This document shows, in pieces, positions 4,102 through 64,000 of a stretch of DNA of 64,000 nucleotides (its first letter is position 1; every line of letters starts with the position of its first letter). The translations under genes and the position numbers were made by a program. The stretch covers positions 9,982,001-10,046,000 of the forward strand of contig CATOCA020000001.1 in NCBI GenBank assembly GCA_951406725.2, given 5' to 3'. Below the pieces are notes generated by a model. The model was given only the letters and a program-made list of their open reading frames with translations, was not told where the DNA came from and made no database searches. This DNA is from Octopus vulgaris (lineage: Eukaryota).

Positions 4102-4165
<64 letters not shown>

Positions 4166-4464: not shown

Positions 4465-4774
4465 GAACGTATCATCAATGAACGGCCATTTACCGGATGT
4501 AATATATGTAAACTCACCCAGGTGCTTCGTTGATGTTGATCAGTTAGCTGCTCGGCTTAGACGAGGTAGGGTCGTTTATTTATGATATGCTTCTTTCTCG
4601 CTTATAATCACCCCACATTACTGTATTGTTAAAACAGTATAGTTTTTTTTGGTGCATCTAAGTTGGGTACCATATTCAAGTAAATTCTTTTAAATTAACT
4701 TGAATCTTTATTGCTTTTTGAATATATTCCCATACAGTCTGTATGTTTTTCTGGTACTTAATTTCTCAACAAGA

Positions 4775-7615
4775 ATGGAAAAAGTAAACATTGAGTTCTC
4801 CCCTAAAGACATCCCCTTACATAGTATAGATGAATATAATTGGCTTCTCATTCATAGGATTAACGATTTCATTAGAAGAATCAGGTGGAAAACGTACCAT
4901 TTTGATGTCAAACAGAAGAAACCACAGGAAAAGAATACCGAAAAGAATTTTAGAAGAATTTTTAAAAGTAGAAAAAGCCCACCTCAGAACCCATTCCTGG
5001 AGAACTTTGAGAAAGACTTGCTGAATCTTATAGATGATATTAGCTTCTAGGAACACCCGTTAAGATATAACCCTCACCTTAGACACCTTAGGAACTTTAT
5101 TCAGTCAACCCGGTGCAAACATGGAATCCTAGTACCAGCAGATAAAACGGGTAATATGTATAGAGTTGATTACGATATTTATAGCAAATTAATTAGGAAG
5201 GAACTAAACTCCAAATATAAAATTACGACTAAGAACAATTTGAAAAAAGTAAACATGGAAATGAAAGAGATCATGGAGAAACTAAATTTAACGGATAGAA
5301 CAGAGCCACTTAAACCGTGTGAGCCTAGGATCAACCTTAAAGACCACAAAAAGAATTTCTTGGAAAACCCTTCGGTAAGGCTGATCTGTCCAACTAAGTC
5401 GGACATTGGCCGACTTAGTAAATCTATCCTGGATACTGTTCTACCCCAAATAACCCCTCTTCTCCCCTTAAACCTATGGCTAAGTACGGACGAAGTTCTA
5501 AAATGGTTTAACTCTCTAACTAATACTAGTAGTCTGTCCTTTATTCAGTTCGATATTAATAGTTATTACTCTAGTATTTCCCCTATCTTACTCAACAAAT
5601 CACTAATATTTGCCATGAATCGCTCCCTCATATCTAGAGAAGAAATCAATATTGTGCTACTAGCTAGGAAGACATTTATAGAATTTGAAGATAAATTATG
5701 GACTAGAGCAGATACACCAAATTTTTTTGATATACCAATGGGTTCCAGTGATTCGGCTGAGGTAACCAACCTAGTAGGCGCATATCTATTAAAATGCATA
5801 ATCAAGGACATCCCAGAAATACAGGGGGGTCTATATAGGGATGATGCTCTGTTTGTTATCCCTAGTAATAATAAATCTGTTATAGAAAGGATTAGAAAGA
5901 AAATTAATAAGTTCTTTAAGGATTTCAACCTCAGTATAACGTATGAACCGGGCACTAAAATAGTTAACTTCCTAGATATTACGCTAGACCTTAACTCCAA
6001 GCTACATTACCCATTTAGAAAGGAAGGCGAAATCACGAATTACGTAAATAAATTATCAAATCATCCCCCAAATATAATTGAATCTTTAGTAAGAAATATT
6101 TCATTAAGAATTTCAAAATTATCATCCAATAAGGATATATTTAACTCCCATTCTGAGCATTATAATGCGGCGTTAACTAAGGCTGGATACAACCAAAAGA
6201 TTACATTCGTTGATAAGGAGAACCCACGTATTCCTAATGAAGAAGTTATCAGTAATCACGTAAGCAGCAATACAGACCAAGCCCGAAATAAAAGTAGAAT
6301 TAAATTAACGGTAAACGCTAATCTAGCGTACAGGCCCAACAATTCAAATAGAAGCATTGACCAGAACATAGGTAACTCGGATAATATCAAAGTAGATAAA
6401 CCTAAGATACACACAAATAAAAATAAAAATAATGGTAATAAATACAATAACTCCGGTGAGATGAATAGTAATAATTCTACGAACCCTAAATTTAATAGAA
6501 AAGATATATTATGGCTGAATATTCCTTTCAACTGTGCGATACAATCGGATATACAGAACAAATTCAAAGTAATTCTGGAAAAAAATTTCCCTATCTCTCA
6601 TAGATATCATAGAATTATTTCTAGGAAAACAGTTAGGATTTCTTATTCAACCCTCCCAAATATGTCCACTTTAATAGCTAAGATTAATAATAACAACATT
6701 AAACTAGCCAGGAAAGATAGAAATAAAAATAATAATATCAGCATGAATACCAATAGCAATTATAATAATACTACCAACAATAAAAACAGCAATAGTAACT
6801 ATCAAAACATAGGTGAAATTAGTAACCACAGAATGACTAATAACATTAACATTAATAGTAATAATAACAATGCCGATATTAATAGAAGTAATAATGTTAA
6901 TAATAGAAATAATAGAAATAAGGCTAATGGAGAAAATAAGGAGAATGAAAATATCAGTGATATCTATAACAACAATATGCAGTCGGATAAAAAGACTAAC
7001 AATAATAGTAACATTACCAATAATATAAGAAATCATGGTAGGACTTTAGACCTAAATGATGAAACAGAAGGATCAATAAATAATAGCAATACTTTAGATA
7101 TCAGCACCAACTATAGAAATGATAATCAAAATAATAGGAACCTAAGACATCTACCCAAGAATAATCCAAAGCCTGAAGTTGTTCCTCCTGTGTGTAAGTG
7201 TAGAATAAAATCAAAATGCCCGGCACCTGGTCTATGCGGGGAAAATAATGTAATCTATAAATGTACCATATCCACGGAGAATAACAAATATTTTTACATT
7301 GGATGTACAATTAATTTTCTAGCCAGAGTCAGAAATCACATCTCGTCTTTTAAATTACGTCATAAGGCTGGTACCACCACACTTTCAAACAAAATCTGGG
7401 AACTCAATAATAATAATAATAATTATAACCTTAATTGGGAAATAGTTAGGAGAGCAATTCCGTATAAAAATAGTAGGGTTGGTTGCCAACTATGCTCCAT
7501 GGAGACGTATGAAATTCTAAAGCATAGAAAACATAGAAACTTATTGAATAACCATATCGAACTAGGTCAAGTTTGTGTCCACGCTAAATTGAAGACTTTA
7601 AAATATTTTAAATGA
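4775..7615 (+). CDS. Penelope-type reverse transcriptase + GIY-YIG endonuclease, about 946 codons, interrupted by one in-frame TAG at 5048-5050
   Basis: FSPKDIP..FIRRIRWK N-terminus and VPADKTGNMY lie in frame across the TAG. RT motifs FIQFDINSYYSSI, PMGSSDSAEV, LYRDDAL, VNFLDITL. Linker CKCRIKSKC (CxCx5C). Endonuclease NVIYKC..YIGCT..RVRNH, CQLCSME, CVH. Confidence 0.9.
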
Positions 7616-8637
7616 TTAGAATATTCGTAACTAGATAGATAGATAGATATAACTTGTTTTTTACTAGTATAGCACTGCTTTAAGTAGATAACTAAGAGTT
7701 CTCACACTACAGTTATCTTTTTCCTTATATCTGCATCAGTTTTTTGAGAACAGGGAAATGAATAGTACTTATACGCTGCTTAATTGAGGCTTTATTTAAT
7801 TTCAAACTCATAATTTTAAATCTTAATTTTAAATCTTAATTGTAATTTTTAATTTTAATTCTTAACTTAATCTAATTTAAGTAGCATAACTCTAATAAAA
7901 TAAAATGAGTTACTAAAGCCCCATAATTCTATTTCAAAATTAAATAAATTAGGCTACTCCCTCGGTGATAATATGATTATCTTCATTATGATAGACAATC
8001 CCCTAACACCTTGTAAATGATCTTCTAAGATTTGACCTGTAGTCCGTCAATATATGAATAATAACGGCAACTCCTTAAGACAATAAAATGAATAAAGTAA
8101 ATAAATAAATTTTAATGACTTTTTGATAAGATTATACTTAGATTTTCCTAATGTATTTTCTTTTGATCTTAGCATCTGACCCCTAAACCCCTGACCGTGT
8201 TATCTCTTTAGATTCTCTTTAAATTCATAGCTGATTTCAACAGCAATAAATTAGCTGTTTTACTGGTCAAAGAATAATATTCTCCTCTAGTTCCTAGATG
8301 CCTGTAAATTAAAACCAGACTTGCCGTCTACTAATTCTTCTGTATAACTAGAACCCTCTTTTTTTCTTTTTCTTTTTTCCCTTCTTTCCCTATTTCTTTC
8401 TCTTTTCTCTTTTTTCTTTTCCTTCTTCTTATTCTCTTTTTCCTTTTCTCTTCTCTTTTAGTCCCCTCCCCCCTTTTTGCTCCCTCCTCCTTTATTTTCT
8501 CTCTTTTCTTCTATTCCCTTCCCTTTTCTATTCTTTGCCTCTCTAGAAAGCCCTTCAGCCTTTAAAAGTTAAATAGCTACAGCCTCGTGTAAATAGCAGT
8601 AATTGTGATTAATGTGGCAAATACCTAATCATATAAC

Positions 8638-8928
8638 AAGAATTGATACCTACCTCATTGTGTTCAACCATTGATAAATTTATCGCCTGTGAATATGAAA
8701 TTCCTCTTCATTTCTCTGGAAATTTACATCTACACCATTGGAAATTGTGCATCTATACAAAGGATTAATTCACCCTCTCTGTAATGCTAATAAGCAGGAA
8801 TTGAGACCCACCTCGTTGTGATTAACAATGGATAAATTTGTCGTCTGTGAGTATGTAATCCCTCATCATATCTCTGGAAATTCATATGTGCACTATGGAT
8901 TAGGTCACCTTCTCTGTGATGCTATTAA
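8638..8928 (+). repeat. Diverged tandem duplication (period about 158 bp) in the PLE 3' region
   Basis: GAATTGATACCTACCTCATTGTG..CTCTGGAAATT..CTCTGTAATGCTA recurs as GAATTGAGACCCACCTCGTTGTG..CTCTGGAAATT..CTCTGTGATGCTA. Confidence 0.8.
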
Positions 8929-9074
8929 AACTTTTTTAAAATTCTGTGATAAGACTGTACATCATCTTTAAAGAACTTTAATGAACTTTGGAAATCTGTT
9001 TATGTTACTTAATTATCTACATTACTTCATGAGTATAGCCTCAACCACTAGGATGTCTAGAGAACTCACATGTA

Positions 9075-9165
9075 TTTTAGCTGATGAGTACGGGACACGT
9101 TTATATGCTGTAATTTTTGCAACTTTTAATAAAGCCTGTCCTTGTATGAAACGATTGTACTAAAA
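9075..9165 (+). ncRNA. Type I hammerhead ribozyme with minimal stem III at the PLE 3' end
   Basis: TTTTAG CTGATGA GTACGGGACA..TGTCCTTGTAT GAA AC-gatt-GT A | CTAAAA. Predicted cleavage after 9159. Confidence 0.88.
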
Positions 9166-9192
9166 ACCTATCCATTCTTGTTGCTTCTTTCT

Positions 9193-9231
<39 letters not shown>

Positions 9232-11896: not shown

Positions 11897-14800
11897 GCAT
11901 CGTTTTATGACTACGAAGATGACTAATGAATCCAGCTTTACTGAGGCAGGGTCTTGCACTGACATCGCATGTCAGAATCAAAGGAAGACCCTTCCCTTCT
12001 GAAAGTGTACAAGCGATGCCCTTCCTGGCGGGATGTCAGGAAGGGCATCGCTTACTTTCCTTACTTTCTCATGTGCAACTCGAGATTTCTGAAATGTGGC
12101 TGTCCCCTCATGCACAATCCTTCTCCACCTGCTACGATCAATAACTATGCCTTCCTATGTGTCAGGAGAGATGCAAGCATCTCTTAAGGAAGCCTTCAGC
12201 AAGTCCTTATACCTCTTTTTTGGTTTATGTGGAGGTCGTTCTTTTTTAGCTAACTCTCCATAAAAGAGTTGTTTTGGCATCCTTGAATCCTTCATTCTGA
12301 CCAGATGACCACACTCCATCTGAGCCTTTGCTTTAACACAAGAGCTTCTATACTTTCACGCCGAGAGCCTTCGAGTATTTCAAGATCACCGATGCGGTCC
12401 TTCCACTTAATGCCATAGATCCGTCTGAGGCACATCTGATGGAAACATTGCAGTTGTTTAAGGTGGTATCCATATATGACCCACGTCTTGCAGGCAGAGA
12501 GAAGAGAAGGGAACACACATGCCTTGTACACCTTTATCTTTGTCTTTCTGCATATGTATCGCGGACTCCATGGGCGCTTTTCTAGCCTTCCGAAAGCAAC
12601 ACTTGCTTTCCTAATTCTATATGGAATTTCATCATCCACATTCTATATGGAATTTCATCATCCACATTGCCATATCTATTAATAGTGCTTCCCAGGTAGA
12701 CAAAGTGATCGACTACATCAAGTCGTTTACCATTCACATAGATATTTGGTACACTATACTGCTTACCAGGGGCAGGTTGATGCATGACAACAGTTTTCTT
12801 GAGATTGACTGTCAATCCTAAAGCAGTGCAAGCATCAGAGAATGCATTCAAAATGTGTTGCATATCAATCTCTGTGTGTGCTACTAGCTCAAAATCATCA
12901 GCATACAAAATGTTTTTTTATGATAGAGGTAAATATCTTTGTTTTTGCAGCAAGGCCCCTGATATTAAATATGTTGCCAGAGGTTCGATAATGGACGTAA
13001 ACACCGTATCTGCAGTTTCTGAATGCAATACAGAACACCATCGCGAAATATATGGAAAATAGGGTCAATGCCAGAATATGCCCCAGTTTCAGTCCATTTT
13101 GTATTGAAATGAGCTCCGACATCTTCCCTCTAGCATTCACCCTACCATTCATATCTTCATGAAAAGACCTAACCAAAGCAAGGAACTTTTCAGGACCCCC
13201 AATTTCTGGAGGACTTTCCACAATGCTTTTCTATTGACGGTATCAAAGGCTTTTGTCAGATCGACAAAAAGCTGATACAAATCAAGACCCTGTTCCACAC
13301 ACTTTTCCTGTCTAGCTGAAAAGATCATACCAGCAGTGGCACGTCCCACACGAAAGCCAGATTGATTTTCTGGAAGAACACAATCTGCAATGTATTTCAG
13401 CAGACGATCCAGAAGTATCTTGCATAAAACCTTTCCTACAGCAGACAGCAATGATACTCCCCTATAATTACCACAATCATTCCCGCTGCCCTTTCCCTTA
13501 TACAGAGCCACCATTACAGCATCTCTCCAGTCTATACCTTACCAAACAAAGAGTGAAGTTTCTGCAGAATTTTCTCACCACCATGCTGTAACAACTTCGC
13601 TTGTATGCCATCCATACCCGGAGACTTCCCATTATTCAACCTTGAGACAGCCATTGCAACGTCTTCCAACTTTCGTTGTTCTGCGAGTGCTGCCTTCACA
13701 GGCAATCCAGGGATGAGATTGAGAACATCCTCACTAACTACAGACTGTTGATTCAAAAGTTCATCAAAGTGTTCTTGCCACCTTCGCAGAATTCCTTGTG
13801 AATCATGAAGAACTTCTTTACCATCCCTGCTTCGAATTGGTGTCATCAGGGAAGACGTCGGTCCATAAACTTCTCGCAAGAGACCATACAGCAACTTTGT
13901 GTTATTGGAATCTCATGCCGCCTGTATCTCGTCAGCCTTCTTACTCCACCACGTATCCCTCATCTCTGAGAGCCTTTGCCTCACACGTGATTTTACGTCC
14001 TTGAGTTCCCTATGCAACACTTCCCTTTCGTGTGATTTTGGTTACAAATAGCGTGACAATGTACGCCTTTTATCATCCAATAAATCATCTATATGTTCAT
14101 CATTTTCTTTGAACCAATCTTGATGCTTTCTTTGTATCAATCCCAGAACTTTCCTGCCTATATCATAAACTGACTTTTTGAGGTTCGGCCAATCTTCCCC
14201 AATATCTGCAGCATTCATTTCCTCTCGTAAAGTTCTCTTCACACTATTATACCAACATTCAGTCTTTTACTGTTGCACGTACTAGGCGGTGGTCAGTCCA
14301 ACACTCAGCTCCACGAAGAACACGATCACACTGTACATCCTGTCTGTCACGCACCCTAACTAGGATGTAATCCAGAATATGCCATTCTTTAGTCCTAAGC
14401 TTATTCTTTGGTTGAAACATGGTATTGGTAACACACAGACTCAGCTCTTCACACATCTGCAGCAAAAGCATGTCATTACTATTACACTTCCCCACCCCAT
14501 GCTTTCCAATTACAGTCCATGTGTTAAAATCCCTACCCACTCTAGCATTAAAGTCACCCAGTACGATGACTTTGTCTGCCGAGGGATATTTCTTATAATA
14601 CCCTTCAAAGCATGGTAGAAAGAAAGTTTTTCGTCATCAGTATAGCACATAGTTGGAGCTTACACACTCACCAAGGTCATATAATTTCCTTTAGCCAAAG
14701 GAATTCTCATGGACATAAGACGATCGTTAATTTCGATTGGGAATTCTTCCAACTTGTCCACAAGAGTAGTCTTAACAGCAAATGCCACTCCAGCTTCTCC

Positions 14801-15560
14801 TCTAAACTCTTCATCTCTCCCTTTCCAAGAGAATGTATATTTTCCACAAGATTCTGTAAGATGACCATCTCCAGGTAATCTCGTCTCAGATAAAGCAACA
14901 ATGTCAAGATCATAGCGTTGAAGCTCCTTCGCAACAAGCGCAGTCCTTCTTTCAGGACATTCAGAGGACTTATGGTCAAGCAGTGTCCGTATATTCCAAC
15001 AGCCAATATTCATTATTTTCTTTGGTTCTATCACAGTAGCATGATGACGGCCGGGTTCAGACTGTGATGCTCTGGAACCCCTGCCGAGCCAGACTCTTTC
15101 AGCTGATGTGGTTCCAGAGTCCTTACTGCCATTTATTGTTATACTGTTTTGGTACATCATTGATTTTTGCTTTTTAAGGCTACAGCCAGCCATTCAGTTG
15201 AGACTCACAGCACTATCAACAATCATGAATTAGTTAATCACTTTAATCAATCCAATGTTGTTTTCGTGCAATGCCTGTGCAAAAAGAAATTTTCAAAGTG
15301 AGGAAAGACTGTGCACTGAGTCAATCCCACACACTAAGCAACAGAAGCCATAATCCGAAAAGACATCATCGGTCAACATCATCGGTAACCACTGAGCCGC
15401 AGGTTTTATGTCGCAGTTATCCCAATTACCTGAGTTACCTTCTAGAAGGATGCCCTAACAAAGGCTAGGAGTCCTTTACTCCCAATGGTTTAACCGCGCG
15501 ATCGGGTATTCAGTCCGGTTATTTCTATGTCCCCGCCTATGTTACAGCCTTAAGCATTAA
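11897..15560 (-). mobile_element. Near full-length RTE-clade LINE with disrupted ORF
   Basis: APE, RT (NYRGVSLLS, QSGFR, FVDLTKAFDTV, YADD, FVYLGS) and C-terminal AGFISHLRSH. Many frameshifts and a 26-bp internal tandem duplication near 12615-12668. Confidence 0.93.
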
Positions 15561-28740: not shown

Positions 28741-28744
28741 AAGG

Positions 28745-29030
28745 CCCCAGTACTTATTCTTTGTAAGCCTAGTATTTATTCTATCGGTCTCTTTTGCCGA
28801 ACCGCTAGGTTACAGGGTCGTAAACACACCAGCATCGGTTGTCAAGCGATGTTGGAGGGGTGGGGGACAAAAACAGACACAAACATATACACACATACAC
28901 ACACATAGATATATATATACATATACATATATACGACAGGCTTCTTTCAGTTTCCGTCTACCAAATCCACTCACAAGGTTTTGGTCGGTCCGAGGCTTAA
29001 GTAGAAGACACTTGCCCAAGGTACCACGCA
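28745..29030 (-). mobile_element. tRNA-SINE family A, internal part
   Basis: Reverse complement of about 29447-29730. Confidence 0.85.
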
Positions 29031-29336
29031 GGTTCTTCCTGAAATTTCAATTGAAAGCGATTCTCCTTCCAAACGCTAATATCCCTCTTCCTTGCACACA
29101 TTGTATCCCTCGTACACAGGGTAATCAAATTAATAAAAACCGCTTTAGATATTTCTCTTGCGTTCTATTTTACTGTGCTTTTATTATTGTCATTTTCCTT
29201 GTAACTGTAGGCTTTTTGTTTCGAAACCCATAAAAATGGCCATTGGATGGTTTTGTGTTGCTGGAAAGGAACAATCATATTCTAATACATATGTCTGCAT
29301 GTGTGGGCATGGTTGCATATATATATGTATATATGT

Positions 29337-29373
<37 letters not shown>

Positions 29374-29383
29374 TATATATATA

Positions 29384-29816
29384 TGCGTAGTAGTGGGTGT
29401 GTGGTAAGTAGATTGCTTACGAACCATATGGTCCCGGGTTCAGTCCCACTGCGTGGTACCTTGGGCAAGTGTCTTCTGCTATAACCTCAGGCCGACCAAA
29501 GCCTTGTGAGTGGATTTGGTAGACGGAAACTGAAAGAAGCCTGTCGTATATATGTATATGTATATATATCTATGTGTGTGCATGTGTGTATATGTTTGTG
29601 TCTGTTTTTATCCCCCCTCCAACATCGCTTGACAACCGATGCTGGTGTCTTTACGACCCTGTAACTTAGCGGTTCGGCAAAAGAGACCGATAGAATAAAT
29701 ACTAGGCTTACAAAGAATAAGTACTGGGGTTGACTTGCTCGACTAAACGCGGTGTTCCAGCATGGCAACAGTCAAATGACTGAAACAAGTAAAAGAGTAA
29801 AAAGAGTAAAGAGTAT
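29384..29816 (+). mobile_element. tRNA-SINE family A, full length
   Basis: Head, core and AAGAGTAA-repeat tail. Confidence 0.9.
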
Positions 29817-32264: not shown

Positions 32265-35200
32265 CTAGAAAAGGTAGTGGGTAGCGAACTTCTTCACTAC
32301 TTCAGGGAGTGACGACCCTGCCTGACACGAGTTCCGGGCTCCGGCTGACAGTACCCGGTATGGGCCCCTATCCAGGGTTACGGAACGGAAACAACCTTCA
32401 AAGAAATCCGGAGTGGAGCGCCGAAGGCGGTCTAGTGTTCGACTCGACACTCTCTCCGGCAGCTCCTGTAACCAAGCTGGTGCCAAACGTAATGCACTGC
32501 ACTCCTTTGGACTACATCAGCAAGGTCGAGAGAGGAAACCTGACGATTGGGCTACCCAGGACTTTCTTATCTATAGCCCAGGCTTGCGCAAAACTGGAGA
32601 GGACACTTCAGTGCTGCTGTAAAAAGCTGTAGAAACAACACGGGAGGTAACAGTCACGAGTGATAAGTCTATTCAGATTGGCGTAAAATATGGGCGCTAC
32701 GGGTTACCTCTGACGGTGGGAGGGACCTCCGTGTCCTATTGGTTAGCTACTGCCCACCTCAAGCTGGGCAGCCCCCAGTTAATAAGGTGCTGACCCGCCA
32801 CAGGTCGCCTGCTTCATTGGGTGCTTGAAGCTAAAAGTATGACTTGAAAAGCGGCCTGCAACCTCTGCACCAGGCAAACAACTAAAAGTCAAGAAAACAC
32901 CAGTTGTGCGGTTGGCAAGTTGGAATGTCAGGACCATGTGCCCTGGAATATCTGATGATCTACTCAGGGTTGAAGACACAAGGAAAACGGCCATCATTGA
33001 CCGTGAACTAAAGAGGCTCAACATAGATATTGCTGGGCTGCAGGAGACAAGTCTCCCCTCGAACGGCAAACTCAAAGAGCAGGATTTCACCTCCTTTTGA
33101 CAGGAAGCGATCCAGAAGAACCTCGTCAGCATGGCGTTGGCTTTTAGTGAGAAACTAATTACTCTCCTCAATAGAACCACCATCAGGAGGCACTGAGCGT
33201 ATCCCCTCACTGCGCCATTCGACTTCTTCTGGCTCAGTACATCTACTCAGCATCTCTACTCTCACTCTCTACAGCTCAGAGGAGACCAAGTACCAGTTCT
33301 ACAAAGATCTCAACTGTGTCATAGAAAATATACCAACGACTGAAAATATCTACCTTCTGGGGGATTTTAACGCTCGCGTGGGATCTGACCATGATTCGTG
33401 GCCCATTTGTGTTGGACACTTTGGTATTGGCAACATGAATGACAATGGTCAGAGACTACTCGTATTCTGCACATACCACAACCTGTGCATCACAAACACA
33501 TTCTTTACCAACAAGCCTTCCCACAAGGCATCTTGGAGACATCCAAGATCTCACCACTGCTCATCAGCTGGATCTCATCATTACACGGAGATCCTTTCTG
33601 AATTCTACTCTATTGACCCGCAGTTACCACAGCGCGGATTGTGACACAGACCACTCACTAATTAGAAGTAGGGTGAGGATTCTGCCTAAAAAAGTCCATC
33701 GCTTCAAGAAAGTGGGCCGACCACGCATTAACACTGCCAGAACCTCGGAACCTACACTGCGAAAATGTTTTGCTGCTTCTATCAAAGTTGCCCTCAGTAG
33801 CTGCCCAACCTCCTCTGCTGAAAGTAGGTGGAACTATATCAGGGAAGCTTTGTATACGACATCAATAGATACTTTCGGCATGAGAGAAAGGCAAAACCCA
33901 GATTGGTTCAATGCTGGGCTCTCAGAGCTGGAGCCAGTTATCGAAGCAAAGTGTGCAGCTCTGATGCAATACAAGAGTGAATCTTCTACAAAGTCCCTCG
34001 AAGAACTCAGAAAGACACGAAATAAAACCCAACTGACAGCCAGACGCTGTGCAAATGGGTATTGGCAGGAAATCTGTCAGAGTATCCAGTCAGCTGCTGA
34101 CAGTGGCGACACCTGTGGGATGTATGCCGGTTTGAAGAAGGCCCTCGGTCCATCCGCAACCAAGTCAGCCCCTCTGGAGATCTCATCACGGATCAAGGCA
34201 AGCAAATGGATAGATGGGTGGAGCACTACCAGGATCTCTACTCACGGGAGACTACAGTGGCTGAGGCTGCAGTCGAGAGTCTCAAGATCTTGCCAGTCAT
34301 GTGCGAACTTGACAGTCCGCCATCTATAGCAGAGCTCACCAAGGCTGTTAACTCCCTAGCAAGAACTAAGTCTCCGGGAAAAGACGGCACCCCCTCAGAT
34401 ATCATCAATGCCGGTAAAAACCCCATCCTGCTTCGGCATCTTCATGAGCTTCTGTGTCAGTGCTGGGAAGAGGGTACAGTCCCTCAGGATATGCGGGATG
34501 CTAACACCATTACGCTTTACAAAAACAAAGGTGACCGTGGTGATTGTAACAATTACCGTGGTATATCTCTTCTAAGCACTGTTAGAAAAACCTTTGCCCG
34601 CGTTATCCTGGCCAGGCTACAACTACTTGCTTCTCGTATCTATCCGGAATCGCAGTGTGGCTTTAGAAGAAGCAGATCAACTATCGATATGATATTCTCC
34701 GTACGCCAACTTCAGGAGAAGTCCAGAGAGCAGAAAATACCATTATATATGGCCTTCATTGATCTAACAAAGGCTTTTGACTCGGTAAGCAGAACAGGCC
34801 TCTTAATCCTGCTCCAAAAAATCGGATGTCCACCAAAGCTGCTGAGGATCATCAAGTCTTTCCATGATGACATGCAAAGCACCATACAGCACAACGGTTC
34901 AACATCAGCCGCCTTCCAAATAAAAAACGGGGTAAAGCAAGGTTGTGTCCTCGCTCCTACATTTTTTGGCATCTTCTTCTCGCTCTTACTCTCACAAGCC
35001 TTTCAGACATCAGATGATGGAGTGTTTCTGCACAGTAGAAGTGACGGGAAACTGTTCAATCTCTCGCGCCTGTGTGCCAAGACCAAAATCAGAAACGTCC
35101 TGATCAAGGAGATGCTATTTGCTGATGATGCCGCTCTGGTATCACACACAGAAGAAGCCCTCCAAAGGTTCATTGACTGTTTTGAGCAAGCATGTAACGA

Positions 35201-35629
35201 CTTTGGCTTAGCTATCATCCTTAAGAAGACCAACATCATGGGTCAGGCTACATAGGACATCCCAAACATACATATTGGAGACCACAGATTACAAGAGGTG
35301 GAGAAGTTTACCTATCTGGGCTCTATCGTCACCTACAACCTATCCCTTGACGCTGAGCTCAATATACGCATTGGAAAGGCAGCTGCTGCGATGGCCCAAC
35401 TCTCCAAACGGGCTTGGGACAACAATAAGCTGATGAAGACCACGAAAATGAAGATCTACCAGGCATGTGTACTCAGCACTCTACTGTATGGAAGTGAGAC
35501 TTGGACGCTATACACACACCAAGAGCCTCACCTAAACATCTTTCACCTGCGCTGCCTCCGAAAAATCCTCCGCATCAAATGGCAGAATCATATCCCCAAC
35601 AAAGATGTCCTCAGGCAAGCAGGAATACG
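32265..35629 (+). mobile_element. RTE-clade LINE (second family): 5'UTR + APE + RT, disrupted, 3' end deleted
   Basis: LASWNVRTM, DIAGLQET, LDLIITRR..DCDTDHSL, NYRGISLLS, FIDLTKAFDSV, GVKQGCVLAP, LFADD, FTYLGS. Confidence 0.93.
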
Positions 35630-36130
35630 GTAAGCCAGATGGATTAGATTAGCATGGTAATTTCTTATAAGAAGTTAATACTCATCAGCAATGCTCACTC
35701 CATTACGGCTGGTGGAGGTTAGCTCACGCCTGTCAATATCTTTCAGAATGACATAAAAATGAGTGATTGATTTCACAAAATGGCAATGTGAAGATTATAA
35801 AATAATTAAGGTGGCTAATACGCAATTTAAAACCAACCAGGAAATTACCAATATATATATATATATATAAAATGTATATAAAAATTTATACACGGAGGGA
35901 AGACCACCATGTGGATTTCTTACATGCTAAAGAGGGAAAGCCACGGTACTGGACGAATATGTTCTTAACACTAACTTTTAGTCACCCGCTTGTAGTTCTA
36001 GCCTTCTTCACTAATTCTGTTCTCAACCATACTGAATGCGGTTATTTTACCTATGATGATCCAATCCTAAGCTATATTTGAATATAGAAATAATTGAAAC
36101 AAAACAATTAATCTCTTTAAGTGTTCAAAG

Positions 36131-41110: not shown

Positions 41111-41152
<42 letters not shown>

Positions 41153-41245
41153 CATATATACGACGGGCTTCTTTCAGTTTCCGTCTACCAAATCCACTCA
41201 CAAGGCATTTGTCGGCCCGGGGCTATAGCAGAAGACACTTGCCCA
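40897..41245 (-). mobile_element. tRNA-SINE family A, head missing
   Basis: Core and tail match the other copies. Confidence 0.88.
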
Positions 41246-41499
41246 ACAAATTTTATTCAACAAAATCAATAACGTGTGACAAAAACATCTTCAAATGATT
41301 ATTCCGGAGCATATTCACCATCTACTTCAATAACTGTTTCCCATTTGCTTGATAGACGGTCATGTAAAGATGTTTTTGATAAATATTTTTATTGCTTTTG
41401 TTGAATAATATTTCTTGAAATAAGCCGCAATAATTATGCACCAACCCAATATTTTACCTAACCCTAGGATGGTGTCATATCTTGAATTGAGCGTGACAT

Positions 41500-42135
41500 G
41501 GATTAAAGTGATAGAAGGTTGCACAATAGCATCTGACTCACTCTCTCGTCCCTTCCTATGTAATTCCAGTGGGAGGATGAAGTCAAGAAAACTACAGACA
41601 GGTTGCAGTTCACCCTCCACAAAGCTTGCGGGTCCGTTGAGCCTGTCTAGTGGTTTCCTCAGCACACTCAACTGGTTCACATCCTTAGATAGACAAACCC
41701 TAGCCCACCAATGGTTAAAGGCCGTGTGCTACCCTTACCAAGGTTTAGCCAGCCTGTGGAAGCCGTGAGCCTGGGTGTGGATACTGATGCATGCAGACAG
41801 CATTGATGACTCACAGGTGACAGGTGGGTGTCACAGGAGGAACAAAGCGGACGGACTACTCCAAAGGTCACTGCATCTGCCCTTGAAAGAGGTACTAATT
41901 GACCCAGATATACCTTGCAACCTAGAAAAGGATTACAAGGGCAAAGAAAGCTTCAATTATGCGGGTCCAGAGTCGGCTTCTTTCCTTCAGACCCAGCAGA
42001 CAACCATTGCCCGACCTGTGGCAAAGACTTCCCAGCACGTATCGGACTGGACGACCACTGCCGGACACACCGTTACCCATCTCCTTCTCCCATGTAATGT
42101 ATTTGGTCATCGTCGACAACGACGGAAGAACTAAT
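41500..42135 (+). mobile_element. Internally deleted RTE derivative, ending in the RTE C-terminal zinc finger and tail
   Basis: CPTCGKDFPARIGLDDHCRTHR followed by GGTCATCGTCGACAACGACGGAAGAAC. 5' boundary uncertain. Confidence 0.65.
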
Positions 42136-42927
42136 ACCTGCCTCTGACTTGCTATTCTCATACGATGAAAAAAGACTCTCTCTCTCTCCTACCTGTCTCT
42201 GTCACTCTATTTTCTCTCTCTCACTGTATATATCTCTGTCTGTGTCTCTGGCACCGTTGTGTCACCCGTCTCTCTCTTCTTGCTTGTTTGTCTCTCTCTC
42301 TCTCTCTCTCTCACTCCCACTCTCTCTCTCTTTCTTTCTCCTCTTTCTTTCTCTACCCCTATCTGCCTCCCTCTCTCCCCTTCTCTCATTCTCCCACTCT
42401 CTATTTGTCTCCCACTCCCATTCTATCTCTGTATTTCTCTCTCACTCTCTTTCTTTCTCCTCTTTCTCTTGCTCGATTGAACGGATGGCCGCCTAACTGA
42501 TTGATTTTTTTTTCGCATGATCGGACGGCGACGGTAAGCGGATCGATTTCGAATCACCGTTTGAGCAATTCCACTGAAACACGGACACACTCGCCAAATT
42601 GGCGGGATGTTTATATTGTGGCCCACGAAAGAGACGGTTATCTGCGTCAGAGAAGGGGAAGCGAATGAACGGTTTGAGTTACACTTGAACATACACACGC
42701 AAGAAGCGACCTTTGCCACTTCGTTTTATTGTCACTGAAAGACGGAAAGAAAAATTTGACCCAAACGAGAGAATTTAATTAACAACATTAAGGGAGGTAA
42801 TATGTCTTATTCTACAAGAGTTATTGCCCTTGAACTGTTAAATTATAGTTTCATCTTAAGGGTGATGACAACCAGTAGAGCAGCTGTGAAGGCTCCGTAT
42901 GTATGTGTGTGCATATATATATACATA

Positions 42928-43337
42928 GACGTAGGAGTGGCTGTGTGGTAAGTAGCTTGCTAACCAACCACATGGTTCTGGGTTCAGTCCTACTGCGTGG
43001 CATCTTGGGCAAGTGTCTTCTGCTATAGTCTCAGGCCAACCAATGCCTTGTGAGTGGATTTGGTAGACGGAAACTGAAAGAAGCCTGTCGTATATATGTA
43101 TACATATATGTGTATATGTTTGTGTGCCTGAGTTTGTCCTTCTAGCATTGCTTGACAACCTATGCTGGTGTGTTTACGTCCCCGTCACTTAGCGGTTCGG
43201 CAAAAGAGACTGATAGAATAAGTACTAGGCTTACAAAGAATAAGTCCCGGAGTCGATTTGCTCGACTAAAGGCGGTGCTCCAGCATGGCCGCAGTCAAAC
43301 GACTGAAACAAGTAAAAGAATAAGAAAAGAAAGAAAG
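42928..43337 (+). mobile_element. tRNA-SINE family A, full length
   Basis: Head, core and tail present. Confidence 0.9.
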
Positions 43338-44986: not shown

Positions 44987-45697
44987 GTGGACACCCTGGA
45001 CATCATCCTGGGAGGTGACGGCAGCAGGGAGGGCCAAAAGGATGAGGAAAGCATCCAGAGCCAAATGGAGAAGCCTGGAACACAGGGAAACGATGACACA
45101 TGTCCAGCTTCCAACACCACAACTGAAGACCAAAGAGGTGCGATGGCCGCAAGAAAGGAAAGGCACCCTGGAATTGATGGGAAGCAGGAGGTAAAGGGTG
45201 ACAGAATCAAGGCTAAAGGAAGCCCTGTCCAGAGAAAGCAGAGGGACCCCAGCAAAAACTGTAAGGGCAGGGAAAGAAACACCTGCAAATTCTACCTGAG
45301 GGGGGACTGCTGGTACGGCGTTGAAGGTGCAAACTGTCGCTTTGCACATCGGAGGCCCTACCAAAACCGCACGGACGCGAGACAGAGGTCCCTCCCTCAG
45401 GGAGAACAAAAACAAAAAGTTAAAAGAAGGGAAAAAAGCGCACTGACCACTACTGAAAGACGGTATGCAGATGTGGTGCGCGGAAACCCAACAGGTGGCC
45501 AGCTTCACCCAGATGTGAGAAGGGCGGCAGCTGAACAGCAGTCTTTTTTGTGCATGGCACAAAAAATTGTTCAGCAGCTGACCTGGCTACAAGCACAAAG
45601 CTGGAACTACCACCACATAAGGCCACCTCCAACAGATGCAGGATGGCCACCACAGACACCAACACCAACACACACACCACAAAAATATTTCTACTGA
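44987..45697 (+). CDS. LINE ORF1 with CCCH zinc finger (start uncertain)
   Basis: [28 protein letters not shown], Pro/Gln-rich C-terminus. Overlaps the ORF2 start. Confidence 0.75.
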
Positions 45698-48652
45698 ATG
45701 TAGGAGGGCTGCTGCGCGGAAACTGTAAAAAGAAAATTTCATTCCTGAGAGACCTTGTGACATGCAATCAAGCTATATGCATGGCACTCACAGAAACGCA
45801 TCTTGAACCCGATATAGGTGATGCAGAAATACACATGCCGCAATATGCAGTCATACGCACAGATAGAAAAGGGAGGAGCCATGGTGGAGTTGCAATGTAC
45901 ATCCGAGATGACCTCACGCCCCAGGTCCTGCTGTCATATTCAAACTCAGTATGTGAAACTCAAATTGTACACATAAGACAACTGAATATCGTCATATGCA
46001 CTACATATCGCCCACCAGACGCCCCAAAACACTCAGGCATGTTTGAAGACTGCCTAACAAAAATAGGAGAAGTCCTCACCAACCTTGAACAGCACAACAG
46101 TGTATTCTTCATGGGTGACTTTAACCTCCCCAATGTGGAATGGCCTGGGGGCAGATGCTCCCAGGGATGACACACCATCAGCAGGCACAGGTGGAGTCCC
46201 TGCTCCATCTCACAAATACCTCTTTCATGGAGCAAATAGTTCTGCAACCAACAAGGGCAGATAATATACTGGATCTCTGCTTTACAAACAATATGGATAT
46301 TATCCATAATGTTAATGTGATGCCGACAATGATCTCGGATCACAACATAATAGAGCTGTCTACGTATGGAACAAAAGCCCCTGCAGACACACAGCCTATA
46401 CGAAGCACCCACCATCTCTCCAACTTAAACTTTCATAAAGCCAACTGGAAGTCGATTGAGAAAGAGATCCTCAAACAGGATTGGCCTGAATGTCTCTCCA
46501 CACCGGACATAAACATGAAACACAAACACTTCATGTCCATAATACAAGCCATATGTGACAAATATGTCCCAATGTGCAGGGCCAGCACACACAAGAATAA
46601 AAACAGGATCTCTAGAGAAAGGAGGATTCTTATGAGACGACGGACAAGGATTGCAAACCGCCTGAGCAAGCACACCAAAAGTGGTGAGAAGTCTCGGCTC
46701 GAAAGAATGCTAATGGAAACTGAGAAAAGTCTACATCAGTCCCATGAAAAGGAGAGAGCAGATAAAGAAGCTTGGGTAATAGAAAATATAAAATCAAACC
46801 CTAAAGCTTTCTTTAAGTTTGCCAAAGAGACAGCCACAGTGCACCAGAGAATAGGACCTCTCTTCCAAAAAGATGGCTCTCTCACAGGAAATCCCACGAG
46901 GATAAGTGAAATACTGAACGAACAGTTCCAAAGTGTATTCACTACACCTCTAGGACACAGGCAAGTAAACAACCCAGAAGAATTCTTTGCCACTTTACCA
47001 GCGGCCAAAGAGACAAAAATTGAGTACATCAACATCGAAGAAGATGATATCACACTAGCCATTGATGAGATTGACACAAACTCAGCTGCTGGACCTGATG
47101 GATTCCCAGCGATCCTTCTCAAATCGTGCAAACGAGCCCTTGCAAAACCGCTACAGCTTCTTTTTCAGAGCTTTCTTGCAAGTGGTAAGCTCCCAGTCAA
47201 ACTGAAAGAGGGGGTAATATGCCCTATCCATAAGGGAGGTAGCAGAGCAGATGCTAAAAATTATAGGCCTATCTCTCTGACCTCACACATCAGCAAAGTC
47301 ATGGAACGAATAGTCCGTAAGAAACTAATCATGTTCCTTGAAGAAAATGACTTACTGTCTGACACCCAGCATGGATTTCGACCAGGTAGAGGCTGCCTAA
47401 CACAGCTCCTGCAACACTATGACTGGGTGTTGAAACAGCTACTAAATGGCTCAAATGTGGATGTAATATATCTTGACTTTGCAAAAGCCTTTGATAAAGT
47501 CGACCATGGTATGATCTGTCACAAACTGCGTGGTCTCGGCATAGGCGGGAAACTTGGAGAGTGGCTGCACAACTTCCTAAAAGACAGAAAACAGGCAGTT
47601 GTGAGCAATGGAGCCACCTCCAGGGAAACGCAAATAACAAGCGGTGTCCCACAGGGCACTGTCTTGGGGCCACTGATGTTCATAGTGGCCCTTTCAGACA
47701 TGCCTTCAGTTGCTACGATGACCACCCTTGCTAGCTATGCAGATGACACAAAGGTCTCCCACGCAATACAGAACCCTGAAAATATTGCGCATCTGCAACA
47801 TGAGCTGGACACAATATACAGGTGGGCTGAGGACAACAACATGCAGTTTAATGCAGGTAAGTTCCAGGCCCTGCGCTACTGGCACACAAAGGTAAATGAC
47901 GTGAAGACTGGATACACTGGCCCAGGAAGAATTGCAATCCCTGAGTCAAAATCAGTGCGTGACCTGGGCATTGACATGAGCAATGATGCATCTTTCCAAA
48001 TGCATATTGCTAATCTGGTGATAAAATGCAGACGGCTAGCTGGATGGATTCTCCGAACTTTCAGAACAAGAGAGAAGGAGACACTGATGGTCCTATGGAA
48101 AACATTTGTCCTCAGCCGCTTGGACTACTGCTCCCAACTTTGGTCACCACACAATATAAAACAAACAGCAGAACTCGAAGCAACTCAGAGAAGCTACACA
48201 AAGAAAATCGTCTCAATGCAAAATGTCAGCTACTGGGAAAGACTGAAGGTATTAAACCTCTTCTCCCTGGAGCGGAGGCGGGAGAGATATGCAGTAATAT
48301 ACATCTGGAAAATCCTGGAGGGTCTTGTCCCAAACTTTGGCATTCAAAGTTACTCCAACCGCAGAACGGGCGCCGCTGCGTGGTGCCAAGGATTCCAACA
48401 TCACCATCAAAATACAGGTCCAGATACTGCAACAGCTTGGGTTTCAGAGGACCACAGCTTTTCAACATCCTCCCTAAATGCCTGAGAGACTTACATGGTG
48501 TGGATGTGGGTTTCTTTAAAACTAAACTGGATCTCTTCTTGTTGGGAGTCCCAGATGAACCTACCTCACGACAGGAGACACGGATGCGGGCAGCAGCATC
48601 GAACTCCCTTGTTGATCAAGTGCCACGTATCAGAGGTGGATTCACAAACTAG
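45550..48652 (+). pseudogene. LINE ORF2 (APE + RT) with two frameshifts (about 46150 and 48370)
   Basis: LNVGGL, ALTETHL, YRPPD, MGDFNLP, SDHN, NYRPISLTS, QHGFR, YLDFAKAFDKV, GVPQGTVLGP, YADDTK, SYWERLKVLNLFSLERRRERY. Confidence 0.92.
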
Positions 48653-50954: not shown

Positions 50955-51110
50955 TATTTACATTATTTACATTTGACGGATATTCGTCCTCATCTTGTTT
51001 GTTGTTTACACAATGCTTCGGCTGATATACCCTCCAGCTTTCATCAGGTGTCGTGGGGAAATTTCGAACCTGGGTTCTCATTTCTAAGGTATTTTTCGAT
51101 GTAATTATTA
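50955..51110 (-). mobile_element. 3' part of a hammerhead-tailed short element (same family as 56579-56839)
   Basis: ACAC CTGATGA AAGCTGG..TCAGCC GAAG CATT GTGT at 51008-51051, core partly mutated. Confidence 0.6.
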
Positions 51111-54125: not shown

Positions 54126-54165
<40 letters not shown>

Positions 54166-54174
<9 letters not shown>

Positions 54175-54524
54175 ATTGGTGAATTGAAGAAATGGAGCTG
54201 AACGCAGATTGAACAGAAATCGTTTTATTTCATTCTACACGTGTTTCGAAAGGCACAAATTACCAAAATCCGATTGAATAATGGGACCATATTGTGTCTT
54301 TCTCTTCAGGAAGAAAATAGGAAATCCGTTGGAAAAACAAAAACAGAACGTTGTTTTTCCAACGGATTTCCTATTTTCTTCCTGAAGAGAAAGACCAATA
54401 TGGTCCCATTATTCAATCGGATTTTGGTAATTTGTGCCTTTCGAAACACGTGTAGAATGAAATAAAACGATTTCTGTTCAATCTGCGTTCAGCTCCATTT
54501 CTTCAATTCACCAATAATGTTTTA
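54166..54524. repeat. Near-perfect inverted repeat (arms about 175 bp, 10-nt spacer) with a hammerhead in each arm
   Basis: Arms 54166-54340 and 54351-54524, one indel seen. Element continues to about 54675, then (TA)n. Confidence 0.95.
54373..54463 (+). ncRNA. Type I hammerhead ribozyme (mirror copy on - strand at about 54227-54318)
   Basis: ATTTTCTTC CTGAAGA GAAAG..CTTTC GAA ACACGTGT A | GAATGAAAT. Confidence 0.85.
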
Positions 54525-54729
54525 ATTTCAATTATCCGCACCAACGCACGGTTGCAACACCATATGGTTGTACCTCCAACCGTGCTGTTTACTGCTGTGA
54601 TTTTTGCTACTAAGGTATCGGTTAAACTTTTGATTAATCTACTACAAGATTATTCATCTTTCTATTTCACATAATATATATATATATATATATATATTTA
54701 TACATGCATACATACATACATAAATACAT

Positions 54730-54964: not shown

Positions 54965-55340
54965 ATAGTTCTACAATAGGCACAAGGCGTGAAATTTGGG
55001 CGGGGAACAAGTCGAACTCATCGACCTTCAGTGTTTGACTGGTACTTAATTTATCGTCCCCGAAATGATGAAAGGCAAAGTCGACCTCGGCTGAATTTGA
55101 ACTCATTACGTATCGACGGGCGAAATATTTGTTTCTTTATTAGCCACAAGGGAATAAACATAGAGGGGACAAACAAGGACAGACAAACGGATTACGTCGA
55201 TTAATCGACCCCAGTGCGTCACTGGTACTTAATTTATCGACCCTGAAATGATGAAAGGCAAAGTTGACCTCGGTGGAATTTGAACTCAGTTCTTAGCGAC
55301 GAACGAAATACGGCTAAGCATTTCGCGCGGGGCACTAACG
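54965..55340 (-). mobile_element. tRNA-SINE family C with duplicated core
   Basis: ACTGGTACTTAATTTATCG..GACCTCGG..AATTTGAACTC occurs twice. Confidence 0.8.
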
Positions 55341-56432: not shown

Positions 56433-56578
56433 ATATAAAAATATATAAAGATATATATACATATGTATGAATACATATATACATACATGAATTATAGAAG
56501 TGATATTTTCATGAACTATACCCGTGATATACCCTCCAGCGTTCATTAGGTGTCTTAATCACTATGCCATATGCCCAC

Positions 56579-58784: not shown

Positions 58785-59365
58785 GATATATAGTTCTACA
58801 ATAGGCACAATGCGTGAAATTTGGGCGAGGGGACAAGTCGAATGCATCGACCTTCATTCTTTGACTGGTACTTAATTTATCGACCCCGCAATAATAAAAG
58901 GCAAAGTTGACCTCGGCTGAATTTGAACTCGAAACATATCGACGGGCAAAATATCTGTTTCTTTATTATCCACAAGGGGCTAAACATAGAGGGGACAAAC
59001 AAGGACAGACAAACGGATTAAGTCGATTACATTGGCCACATGCGTAACTGGTACTTAATTTATCGACCCCGTACTAATGAAAGGGAAATTCGACCTCGGC
59101 TGAATTTGAACTCAAAACATATCGACGGGCAAAATATCTGTTTCCTTATTATCCACAAAGGGCTAAACATAGAGGGGACAAACAAGGACAGACAAACGGA
59201 TTAAGTCGATTACATTGGCCCCAGTGCGTAACTGGTACTTAATTTATCGACCCCGTACTAATGAAAGGGAAATTCGACCTCGGCGGAATTTGAACTCAGT
59301 ACTTAACGGCGGACGAAATACGGCTACGAATTTCGCCCGGCGCGCTAAAGTTTCTAGCAGCTCGC
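58785..59365 (-). mobile_element. tRNA-SINE family C with triplicated core (period 183-184 bp)
   Basis: ACTGGTACTTAATTTATCGACCCC starts at 58864, 59047 and 59231. Confidence 0.85.
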
Positions 59366-59901
59366 TGTTATTTCTAGTGGGTGAATGGCCTATTATGGCC
59401 GTTCCTTGATTGTGATGTTGAACTTATTAATGATCTATGACTATTTAATTTTTTCCCACTAGGCCGCTGGTGGCAAAAAAATTCTACGAAATTTTTTGCC
59501 ACCCTATATTGATTAATTATGAATTTTCTGGTTAATTCCGTAATGGAATCGGCGGCTTATATTTGCTGCCGATAAATTTGGCGCGAGTGCGATGATTTGA
59601 AAATTTTAGGTCAGATATTGCCGAGGCAGGGATTGAAGTGCCTCGTGAAAATATCTGCTCCGATCTGGCTGTTTCTTACTGACGAATCTATCGGCCTATG
59701 GAAGATTGGCTTGATTTAATTTAATCAGGTTAGTTTACCATTAAACAATAGATGAAACGGTGCATCGTATAAGAAATTACAGGGTAAATGTTTTTTTAAT
59801 TTTCTCCTGGTTTGCGGAATTAATGTTGTTTTGCGGTTTGAAGCTTTGGCTGTTATTTCTAGTGGGTGAATGGCCTATTATGGCCGTTCCTTGATTGTGA
59901 T
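59364..59901 (+). mobile_element. Retrozyme-like element: 485-nt monomer with identical 53-bp terminal direct repeats and a hammerhead
   Basis: Repeats at 59364-59416 and 59849-59901. 3' end abuts (TA)n. Homologous to 53604-54130. Confidence 0.85.
59672..59776 (+). ncRNA. Type I hammerhead ribozyme, intact
   Basis: TTTCTTA CTGACGA ATCTAT..ATAGAT GAA ACGGTGCATCGT A | TAAGAAA. Predicted cleavage after 59769. Confidence 0.92.
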
Positions 59902-59978: not shown

Positions 59979-60360
59979 CGCAGGAGTGGCTGTGTGGGAA
60001 GTAGCTTGCTTACCAACCACATAGTTCCAGGTTCACTCCCTCTGCGTGGCATCTTGGGCAAGTGTCTTCTACTATAGCCTCGGGCCGACCAAAGCCTTGT
60101 GAGTGGATTTGTTTGACGGAAACTGAAATATATATATATATGTATGTGTGTGTGTGTCTGTGTTTGTTCCCCTAGCATTGCTTGACAACCGATGCTGGTG
60201 TGTATACATTCCCGTCACTTACCGGTTCGGCTAAAGAGACCGATAGAGTAAGTACTGGGCTTACAAAGAATAAGATCCGGGGTCGAGTTGCTCGACTAAA
60301 GGCGGTGTTCCAGCATGGCCGCAGCCAAATGACTGAAACAATTAAAAGAGTGAAAGAGTA
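59977..60360 (+). mobile_element. tRNA-SINE family A, full length
   Basis: Head, core and tail, between TA repeats. Confidence 0.9.
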
Positions 60361-60654
60361 TATATATATATATGCATATATTTGTGTGCATGTGTTCATG
60401 TGTGTGTATCCATTTCTGAATGTATGTATGCATGTATGTAGGGATATATTTATTTACAAATATATATTCAAGTATATGTGTGTGTGCCTGTGTATTACTT
60501 TCGCCTAATTTGTGGTGGGTTATGATTATAATTCGATCTATAGCCATTACTTAACAAATAAATCATTAATTCTTTAGTCTGAAATAAAAGGAAGGGCAAC
60601 AAAACTTTTATAATAATTGTCATTTAAGCCCAATTGCCTTAATTTCGGAACATA

Positions 60655-60768
<114 letters not shown>

Positions 60769-60799
60769 TATATACATATACATATAAATATATATATAC

Positions 60800-61063
60800 T
60801 CTCTCTTTTACTCTTTTACTTGTTTCAGTCATTTGACTGCGGCCATGCTAGAGCACCACCTTTAGTCGAGAAAATCGACCCCGGGACTTATTCTTTGTAA
60901 GCCCAGTACTTATTCTCTCGGTCTCTTTTGCCGAACCGCTAAGTGTCGGGGATGTAAGCACACCAGCATCGGTTGTCAAGCAATGCTAGGGGGACAAACA
61001 CAGACACACAAACACATACACACACACATATATATATACATATATACGACAGGCTTCTTTCAG
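60800..61063 (-). mobile_element. tRNA-SINE family A, 3' part
   Basis: Core and tail present, abuts the Helitron fragment. Confidence 0.88.
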
Positions 61064-61852: not shown

Positions 61853-62513
61853 AATTTAAATATTAAGGTTTGAACGTTTTCCGTATAAAAAATTGAAAAA
61901 ACGGACTTCTTTACAAAGATAAAATGTTTTTATGGAAATGGGCGGACTGATTGTGGTGGTGGTGGCCACGTTCGTGATGACGTATAGAGAGGAAGAGAGA
62001 GAGAGAGAGTGAGAGAGAGAGTGAGAGAGAGAGAGAAATAGAGAAAGAAAGAATGTAGCAATGAATAGGAGTTGCGGGAGAGATATTATTCAGTGTGTGG
62101 TTATTGGAGACAGGTAGTCTCTGTCTTCTCGCTAACACACTCGCTACAATATACACACATATACCTTTAATCAAACATACATTCACACTACACACATATA
62201 TACATACATACATCATATACCATGACAGTACAACATACATACTTACACATACACACGTTTAAACAAAGATACACGCACAGGACAAAGTAACACCCACACG
62301 TTTATAATCTTCGTCCTGGCATTTCATAATTACGTAGCGACCGTTGCAGCAGTGGAACAGAGACATATACATACACATATGCACACACATATGCACACAC
62401 ATACGCATACACACACACACACACACATGTATTTTTCCTGAATATCAAACTAATATTCTTGCTTATTATTCCTACACCTGACTCCAGTTTTTGTTTTTTC
62501 TATAAATTTCAAC

Positions 62514-62544
<31 letters not shown>

Positions 62545-62871
62545 GTGTATATTAAGGGCTAAAAGCCACTATGTGGACAGCCATATGCTAGAAATAGATC
62601 ACCTACGATCAAACTACAAAGAAAGAATGTTCTCTAGGGAATACATGTGTATATTAATGTGCATACATACATACATACATGCATACATACATACATTCAT
62701 ACATACATACATACATACATTCATACATTCATACATTCATTCATACGTACATACATACATTCATACATACATACATACATACATACATACATACATGTAG
62801 GGTGAATGTATGTTTGATTAAAGGTATATGTGTGTATATTGTAGCGTGAGTGTTAGCGAGTAGATAGAGAC

Positions 62872-63844: not shown

Positions 63845-64000
63845 TTAGAGATAGTATAAAATCTTTATAAGGATTTATCAAGTAGTTAGCGTGAAAAGCG
63901 TCATAAGAGAAAAATCCACCATTTTTTTTCATTTAAATGTATTTATTTATATTATATAGAGGGCATCACTATACATAAATGCTACACGCTAGGGGGACTC
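63841..64000. mobile_element. Terminus of an element related to the left end of the 4163-9195 PLE; runs off the window
   Basis: TTATCAAGTAGTTAGCGTGAAAAGCGTCATAAGAGAAAAA..TATAGAGGGCAT..CACGCTA resembles 4212-4331. Follows (TA)n. Confidence 0.7.

Follow-up and report, generated by a model that had tools for sequence, protein, structure and literature searches.

The palindrome at positions 54166–54673 of the window (the whole 64 kb stretch of Octopus vulgaris DNA analysed here) is a real feature, a new family instance of a known and ordinary architecture. We consider it very probable that this element, denoted P3, is a heavily 5′-truncated insertion into (TA)n of a high-copy Penelope-like (PLE) family or of a non-autonomous derivative of one. 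The reading builds on the observed geometry, the ribozyme motif, the family membership of the arms, spacer and tail, and the truncation of both copies. It is supported by the same layout in three unrelated families in the window and by a G10.1–C11.1 pair together with a palindromic helix III, as in the pLTRs of PLEs.

P3 is an interrupted palindrome flanked on each side by (TA)n. The inverted copy (54166–54340, − strand) is tail-less, 5′-truncated and consists of a hammerhead-bearing, pLTR-like end. A 10 nt spacer separates it from the forward copy (+ strand), also 5′-truncated, whose arm spans 54351–54524 and which continues for another 149 nt, to 54673, as a one-sided tail (54525–54673). The arms are identical at 174 of 174 aligned positions, with no mismatches, and the only difference between them is an extra base at 54295 in the left arm; the palindrome described in an earlier note on this DNA is thus confirmed. 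The first nine nucleotides of the spacer (54341–54349, − strand) are family sequence owned by the inverted copy (see below), base 54350 matches neither copy, and the head-to-head junction carries a 6 nt perfect palindrome (54347–54352). We infer that base 54350 is either untemplated or the apex of a perfect palindrome with an 8 nt deletion. Folding predicts a stem-loop in the tail near 54546–54586. The right (TA)n flank occupies 54674–54697. The left one (54129–54165), which is the presumed insertion target, lies between P3 and a second palindrome, P2; it measures 35–38 nt, depending on where its A/T-rich ends are set (54129–54166), in agreement with the single tract of ∼ 35 bp that the two had been said to share. 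Target-site duplication at P3 is masked by the (TA)n flanks.

Public sequencing runs were searched by shared words, and the P3 stretch was counted as present in a run that contained at least half of its words. Among the 24 runs listed, 20 contain 64–86% of the words (nine studies, seven organism labels); when the study of the best-matching run is left out as a possible source, 16 runs from eight studies are retained. None of the listed runs with the stretch is recorded as RNA. Assembled contigs (not raw reads) of runs X1, X5, X6 and X12 were aligned to 54296–54685, where 857, 6045, 965 and 42 contigs were placed respectively, covering all 30 bins. This coverage, seen in four of four runs, shows that the arm and the tail are parts of a single high-copy family. 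One X5 contig crosses the arm–tail boundary at 54524 and extends 31 or more letters to either side of it. The summed depth of X5 dips near 54504–54529, a feature that was not counted as boundary evidence. At the centre of P3, 4, 17 and 3 contigs of X1, X5 and X12 match the left arm and then the spacer as far as 54349, beyond which they continue with other letters that they have in common. Since these contigs agree with one another past 54349, the spacer is family sequence of the inverted copy, and both copies are 5′-truncated, at points 9 nt apart. Other family copies share the extra base at 54295: it occurs in 17 contigs of X1, 42 of X5, 5 of X6 and 2 of X12; many contigs are clipped at this point. 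None of the 32 contig pieces listed (there are 7919 further ones) bridges position 54350, and the pieces listed contain no strand-changing joint; both results are evidence neither way. An exact 30 nt pattern from P3 gave no match in metagenome contigs.

Two further palindromic stumps, P1 (50081–50572) and P2 (53610–54128), share the layout of P3: (TA)n, inverted copy, a spacer of 13, 43 or 10 nt (P1, P2 and P3 respectively), forward copy, a tail of ∼ 58, 94 or 149 nt, and (TA)n again, so that all three have the tract on both sides; no empty allele was seen. This common layout had been noticed before and stands. P2 and P3 were also correctly called unrelated: blastn at E ≤ 0.1 finds no similarity of either P1 or P2 to P3, and P1 and P2 likewise show no blastn similarity to each other. 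The claim that all three palindromes are complete ribozymes fails. In P1 the first core box is altered in both arms (50355 on the + strand, 50241 on the − strand), and in P2 it is found on the − strand only (C3 at 53822, inside the 43 nt spacer), with a mismatched 10.1–11.1 pair. A 6 nt perfect palindrome sits at the junctions of P2 and P3; a palindromic 6-mer was looked for at the P1 junction and is absent there.

The history of P2 is illuminated by a relative at 59364–59900 (+ strand, 71–75% identity), which comprises a 52 bp partial tandem and a 485 nt unit, has an intact hammerhead at 59679 and no evident ORF, and may be a non-autonomous PLE unit. It stops where the P2 inverted arm stops, includes the P2 tail and extends past it. 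Judged from this 26%-diverged relative, the arm end is a fixed family boundary. The same comparison assigns the P2 spacer to the inverted, tail-less copy. Beside this relative, a tandem repeat with a period of 183 bp (2.4 copies, 95% matches) occupies 58864–59298 and has a related pair at 55029–55310; these repeats apparently form a SINE-like family.

We propose that, at P3, the hammerhead-bearing end (pLTR) alone was copied, twice and head to head. An RT/GIY-YIG protein would nick both target strands within the (TA)n tract, and each nick would prime reverse transcription, which would start inside the element RNA at 54524 in one case and at 54673 in the other; the tail would then be the stretch between these two sites. 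The two short cDNAs would be joined at their growing ends over a few self-complementary bases. P1 and P2 would be independent insertions, by other families, at similar (TA)n sites, and P2 and P3 would share a tract because such tracts are where insertion takes place. Within 500 bp, each stump would preserve the joint and the two points at which cDNA synthesis started, and a census of stumps would cheaply test how inverted PLE insertions are built.

Several observations sit less easily with a PLE stump. The tails (58–149 nt) exceed the published 30–40 bp, the P1 junction lacks a palindromic 6-mer, target-site duplication is unreadable in (TA)n and the exact junction is absent among the contig pieces listed. 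The near-identity of the arms needs either one source copy or later homogenisation and is not explained by two primings alone. No RT/GIY-YIG ORF linked to the P3 family was found in the window, in 78 metagenome PLE loci (described below) or in the metagenome contigs.

One of these points is addressed by a variant within the PLE reading, in which the inversion arises when one nascent strand snaps back and primes itself, the apex being trimmed later. Such self-priming accounts for the near-identical arms and for the 6 nt palindromes at the P2 and P3 junctions, and an 8 nt deletion at the apex could have turned a perfect palindrome into P3. However, a cDNA begun in the tail would place the spacer in the tail-bearing copy, whereas the spacers of P2 and P3 are both in the tail-less copy. 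We hypothesize that the spacer always lies in the tail-less copy, which fits the two of two palindromes that could be tested, while one metagenome locus (L016) looks opposite by eye. We regard snap-back as possible, although somewhat doubtful as the route by which P3 formed, and lean towards integration from two primers.

Each strand of P3 carries a complete minimal type I hammerhead that matches a strict descriptor, as the earlier note had claimed; both core boxes and the cleavage triplet are present. The + strand motif (54375–54462) has C3 at 54382, the G10.1–C11.1 pair at 54389/54442 and the cleavage nucleotide at 54454; its helix II comprises 5 bp with a 44 nt loop and its helix I 7 bp with one bulge. 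The − strand motif (54228–54316) has C3 at 54309 and the cleavage nucleotide at 54236. Helix III of the P3 hammerhead is a self-complementary 8-mer (54446–54453) with a calculated duplex energy of −10.3 kcal/mol, and this palindromic helix is predicted to allow a dimeric fold. The strict descriptor has five matches in the 64 kb window, two of them in P3 (one per strand), whereas 100 block-wise dinucleotide shuffles of these 64 kb average 0.03 matches; when the P3 forward copy was shuffled, 0 of 5000 shuffles gave a strict match. Rfam at gathering scores returned no match in the window. A relaxed scan, for which there is no shuffle control, gave ten matches, five of them in P1–P3 and two probably due to chance. 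In related short repeats at 50990–51070 and 56510–56560, a first core box resembling that of a hammerhead is visible by eye on the − strand; these boxes pass neither the strict nor the relaxed descriptor.

Folding does not favour an active monomer. The isolated P3 motif is predicted at −9.0 kcal/mol for the hammerhead monomer versus −16.0 kcal/mol for a rival fold, and the predicted probability of the helix II closing pair is 6 × 10−4 in the forward copy alone and about 10−53 within the whole palindrome, for which a hairpin of −331 kcal/mol is predicted. The idea that the antisense arm blocks the ribozyme is therefore borne out by computation as far as the complete palindrome goes. Because even the forward copy alone is not predicted to adopt the monomeric hammerhead fold, the antisense arm is unneeded to explain why the ribozyme is silent. 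The geometry further suggests that the opposite-strand ribozymes are unable to dimerise in one transcript, and that transcription from whichever side reaches the antisense arm before the sense one. A read-through transcript would accordingly meet the antisense arm first and form a 174 bp hairpin, a would-be ADAR substrate. The best explanation of the paired ribozymes is that they are a by-product rather than a selected two-ribozyme device.

A device of that kind would be implied if P3 were a fixed palindromic mini-element (MITE-like, or a two-ribozyme retrozyme) that moves as a whole and whose hammerheads process both RNA polarities. The almost identical arms, of similar length in P1, P2 and P3, would suit such an element, and the relative of P2, which looks like an ORF-less 485 nt tandem unit, indicates that non-autonomous units exist. 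Against this, the family contigs continue past 54349 with other letters and do not turn back, and their summed depth falls at the centre. P2 has one complete core only and the core of P1 is altered, neither ribozyme of P3 is predicted to fold in the whole palindrome, and tandem monomers are absent. A mobile unit of this design is very unlikely. More specifically, a MITE or fixed palindromic DNA transposon was rejected for P3 on account of the tail outside the inverted repeat and the contigs that run past the centre, and a non-LTR retrozyme on account of the missing head-to-tail tandem array. An assembly or library artefact (a fold-back chimera built on one repeat copy flanked by microsatellites) is scarcely credible: inverted PLE structures do trouble assemblies (reported in PMC8557442) and none of the 32 contig pieces listed, with 7919 further, bridges the junction, but the mirror ends at the element boundaries and excludes the flank, the right copy is missing 9 nt of family sequence and one base that are present in the left copy, the P2 arm ends at a boundary conserved in a diverged relative, and three families have one layout.

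The window also contains a PLE-type protein gene. The element at 4777–9194 (+ strand, open from 5051 to 7615) encodes an RT followed by a GIY-YIG-like domain and is near full-length, with one in-frame stop near 5048, just upstream of the open frame. A hammerhead lies at 9081, and the region has (TA)n at either end. Long asparagine-rich stretches lie between RT and endonuclease, as also described for rotifer Penelopes (PMC3846280), and a 1.6 kb 3′ region contains a pyrimidine tract and a 157 bp internal duplication. Pfam assigned no family to this protein. Its first 400 residues have 1383 relatives; Pfam, applied to five relatives, found GIY-YIG in two and no family in three. In the alignment the RT catalytic motif and the endonuclease residues are kept. 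A PDB sequence search with the alignment gave one weak match, to a retron RT (E = 0.027), and did not match telomerase. Among the first eight relatives, two of the named matches are from Argonauta and rank after a bivalve. Within the window, this PLE element shows no DNA similarity to P1–P3. LINE-type reverse transcriptase copies were also noted at 45535–48485, 33159–35633, 137–1820 and 12292–15193; the first of these includes an open 786-aa frame (46125–48485, Pfam RVT_1) whose best named relative is from Argonauta hians (57%). The Argonauta matches of the two proteins make an octopod host probable.

Of 334 confirmed stretches in metagenome contigs, the best 80 yielded 78 loci that encode relatives of this PLE protein. 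In 27 of these 78 loci there is a type I hammerhead in the sense orientation and in none an antisense one, with 0–1 per shuffle in 20 shuffles, and 15 of the 31 motifs have a perfectly palindromic helix III. None of P1–P3 matches any of the 78 loci (blastn, E ≤ 0.01). In locus L016, (TA)n, a 48 bp inverted arm and a forward copy stand just upstream of the PLE ORF. Short inverted repeats were seen just upstream of PLE ORFs at L016:700–910 and L058:1–160; that of L016 starts at (TA)n, and its spacer contains, by eye, a core resembling that of a hammerhead. In the window, a − strand hammerhead (C3 at 4457) lies shortly before the PLE ORF, in a region, 4164–4480, that directly follows (TA)n. This region is unlike the 3′ end of the PLE element itself and has a 76% relative that begins after (TA)n at 63859–63991. 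It represents either a chimeric insertion or an inverted stump that is unrelated to the element and shares its tract.

Editing provides a lead to double-stranded RNA. In contigs of X12, which we guess to be an RNA run, 12 of the 21 listed differences from P3 are A>G, and 11 of these cluster at 54445–54481 (+ strand), each at 6–27% of summed depth and in 1–4 contigs. The sites take in A14, A15.1 and N17 (the cleavage nucleotide) of the hammerhead. In the DNA runs, whose DNA is not from a matched individual, the same 11 sites are changed at 0/11 in X1, 0/11 in X6 and 7/11 in X5 at ≤ 0.05%. No T>C change within the arm is listed for X12, although the arm has 35 T versus 27 A. The neighbour preference of ADAR gives no signal, a 5′ G preceding two of the 11 changed A and five of the 27 A in the stretch. 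The X12 cluster looks like ADAR hyper-editing of family transcripts, for which any family copy is a possible source. For the long dsRNA foreseen in the earlier note this is a lead at the level of the family, not of this locus.

We also counted 40-mers for which a near-perfect reverse partner lies no more than 2 kb away. P1–P3, which make up 2.4% of the window, hold 824 of the 1121 such non-microsatellite 40-mers; the count is ungapped and the window was picked for its palindromes, so that this share is no genome estimate. A further 1647 are microsatellite-like. The remaining 297 non-microsatellite 40-mers fall in oppositely oriented repeat pairs 0.5–2 kb apart, at 28744–29730, 41149–43102, 60151–61010 and 62140–62848. 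If such stumps had a comparable share throughout an octopod genome, the repeat class responsible for the high dsRNA potential and hyper-editing reported in octopus (PMC5625713) would be identified. We speculate, as a suggestion that may well prove wrong, that, microsatellites aside, near-perfect dsRNA and hyper-editing in octopus come chiefly from palindromic PLE stumps, that ADAR edits their hammerhead core, and that the side of the spacer over thousands of young stumps would separate two-primer integration from snap-back.

Hyper-edited repeats of other animals resemble P3. Porath et al. (2017; PMC5625713) describe heavy editing of Penelope in a lizard (Anolis) and hyper-editing of palindromic Harbinger repeats in Xenopus, and the latter type of repeat, like P3, is self-folding over ∼ 200 bp with a short loop and an ADAR target. 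For octopus the consulted sections report exceptional hyper-editing and dsRNA potential and name no repeat family, octopus being excluded from the repeat analysis there. A literature search that took in few subscription journals found no paper that connects palindromes of PLEs with RNA editing in cephalopods. In a rotifer, antisense small RNAs directed at Penelope families have been described (PMC3846280). In Octopus vulgaris itself, 31 recently active Penelope-like families have been reported, and the word ‘palindrom’ does not occur in the accessible text of that work (PMC13282606).

The ribozymes of P3 have close counterparts. Minimal hammerheads in the pLTRs of PLEs are marked by G10.1–C11.1 and a palindromic helix III; their monomers show no cleavage and their dimers low cleavage, and dual motifs on opposite strands, 100–700 bp apart, have already been reported (PMC4209133). 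P3 shares with them the intact core, G10.1–C11.1 and the palindromic, dimer-suited helix III. Animal non-LTR retrozymes (bioRxiv 10.64898/2026.07.22.740005) are, like P3, short and non-coding, bear a type I hammerhead and are related to PLE pLTRs. In the part of that source consulted they are described as tandem units arranged head to tail, in which two or more complete ribozymes have the same orientation, whereas P3 is head to head with one ribozyme per strand.

The proposed integration step resembles the biochemistry of PAc, the Poseidon protein of Anolis (Frangieh et al., 2024; PMC11167929), which in vitro nicks and extends both strands of AT-rich DNA, uses two internal RNA start sites that set the tail, and for which the hammerhead is dispensable for insertion. 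The AT-rich target, two-strand nicking and extension, and two RT starts that set the tail are as in our proposal for P3. The inverted layout is not derived in the sections of that work available to us, and the PAc ORF starts inside the hammerhead, whereas the P3 frame that starts from loop II closes after 21 codons.

The nearest match in overall architecture is that of EN+ PLE insertions. These have an inverted, 5′-truncated copy beside the 5′ end, a 30–40 bp tail that is often one-ended and a bias towards (TA)n (Craig et al., 2021; PMC8557442), where the origin of the inverted structures is called unresolved. Rotifer PLEs show the same structures with palindromes at the inverted junction, and self-priming was proposed for them (Arkhipova et al., 2013; PMC3846280). 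The repeatable integration footprint that had been put forward for the window is upheld in so far as one layout recurs in three unrelated families, but it is not new, having already been published for Penelope-like elements. P3 is like these insertions in its head-to-head truncated copy, one-sided tail and (TA)n target, and two of the three stumps have the junction palindrome; it differs in that both copies are here ORF-less stumps of about 175–210 bp, with tails in the window of 58–149 nt versus 30–40 bp.
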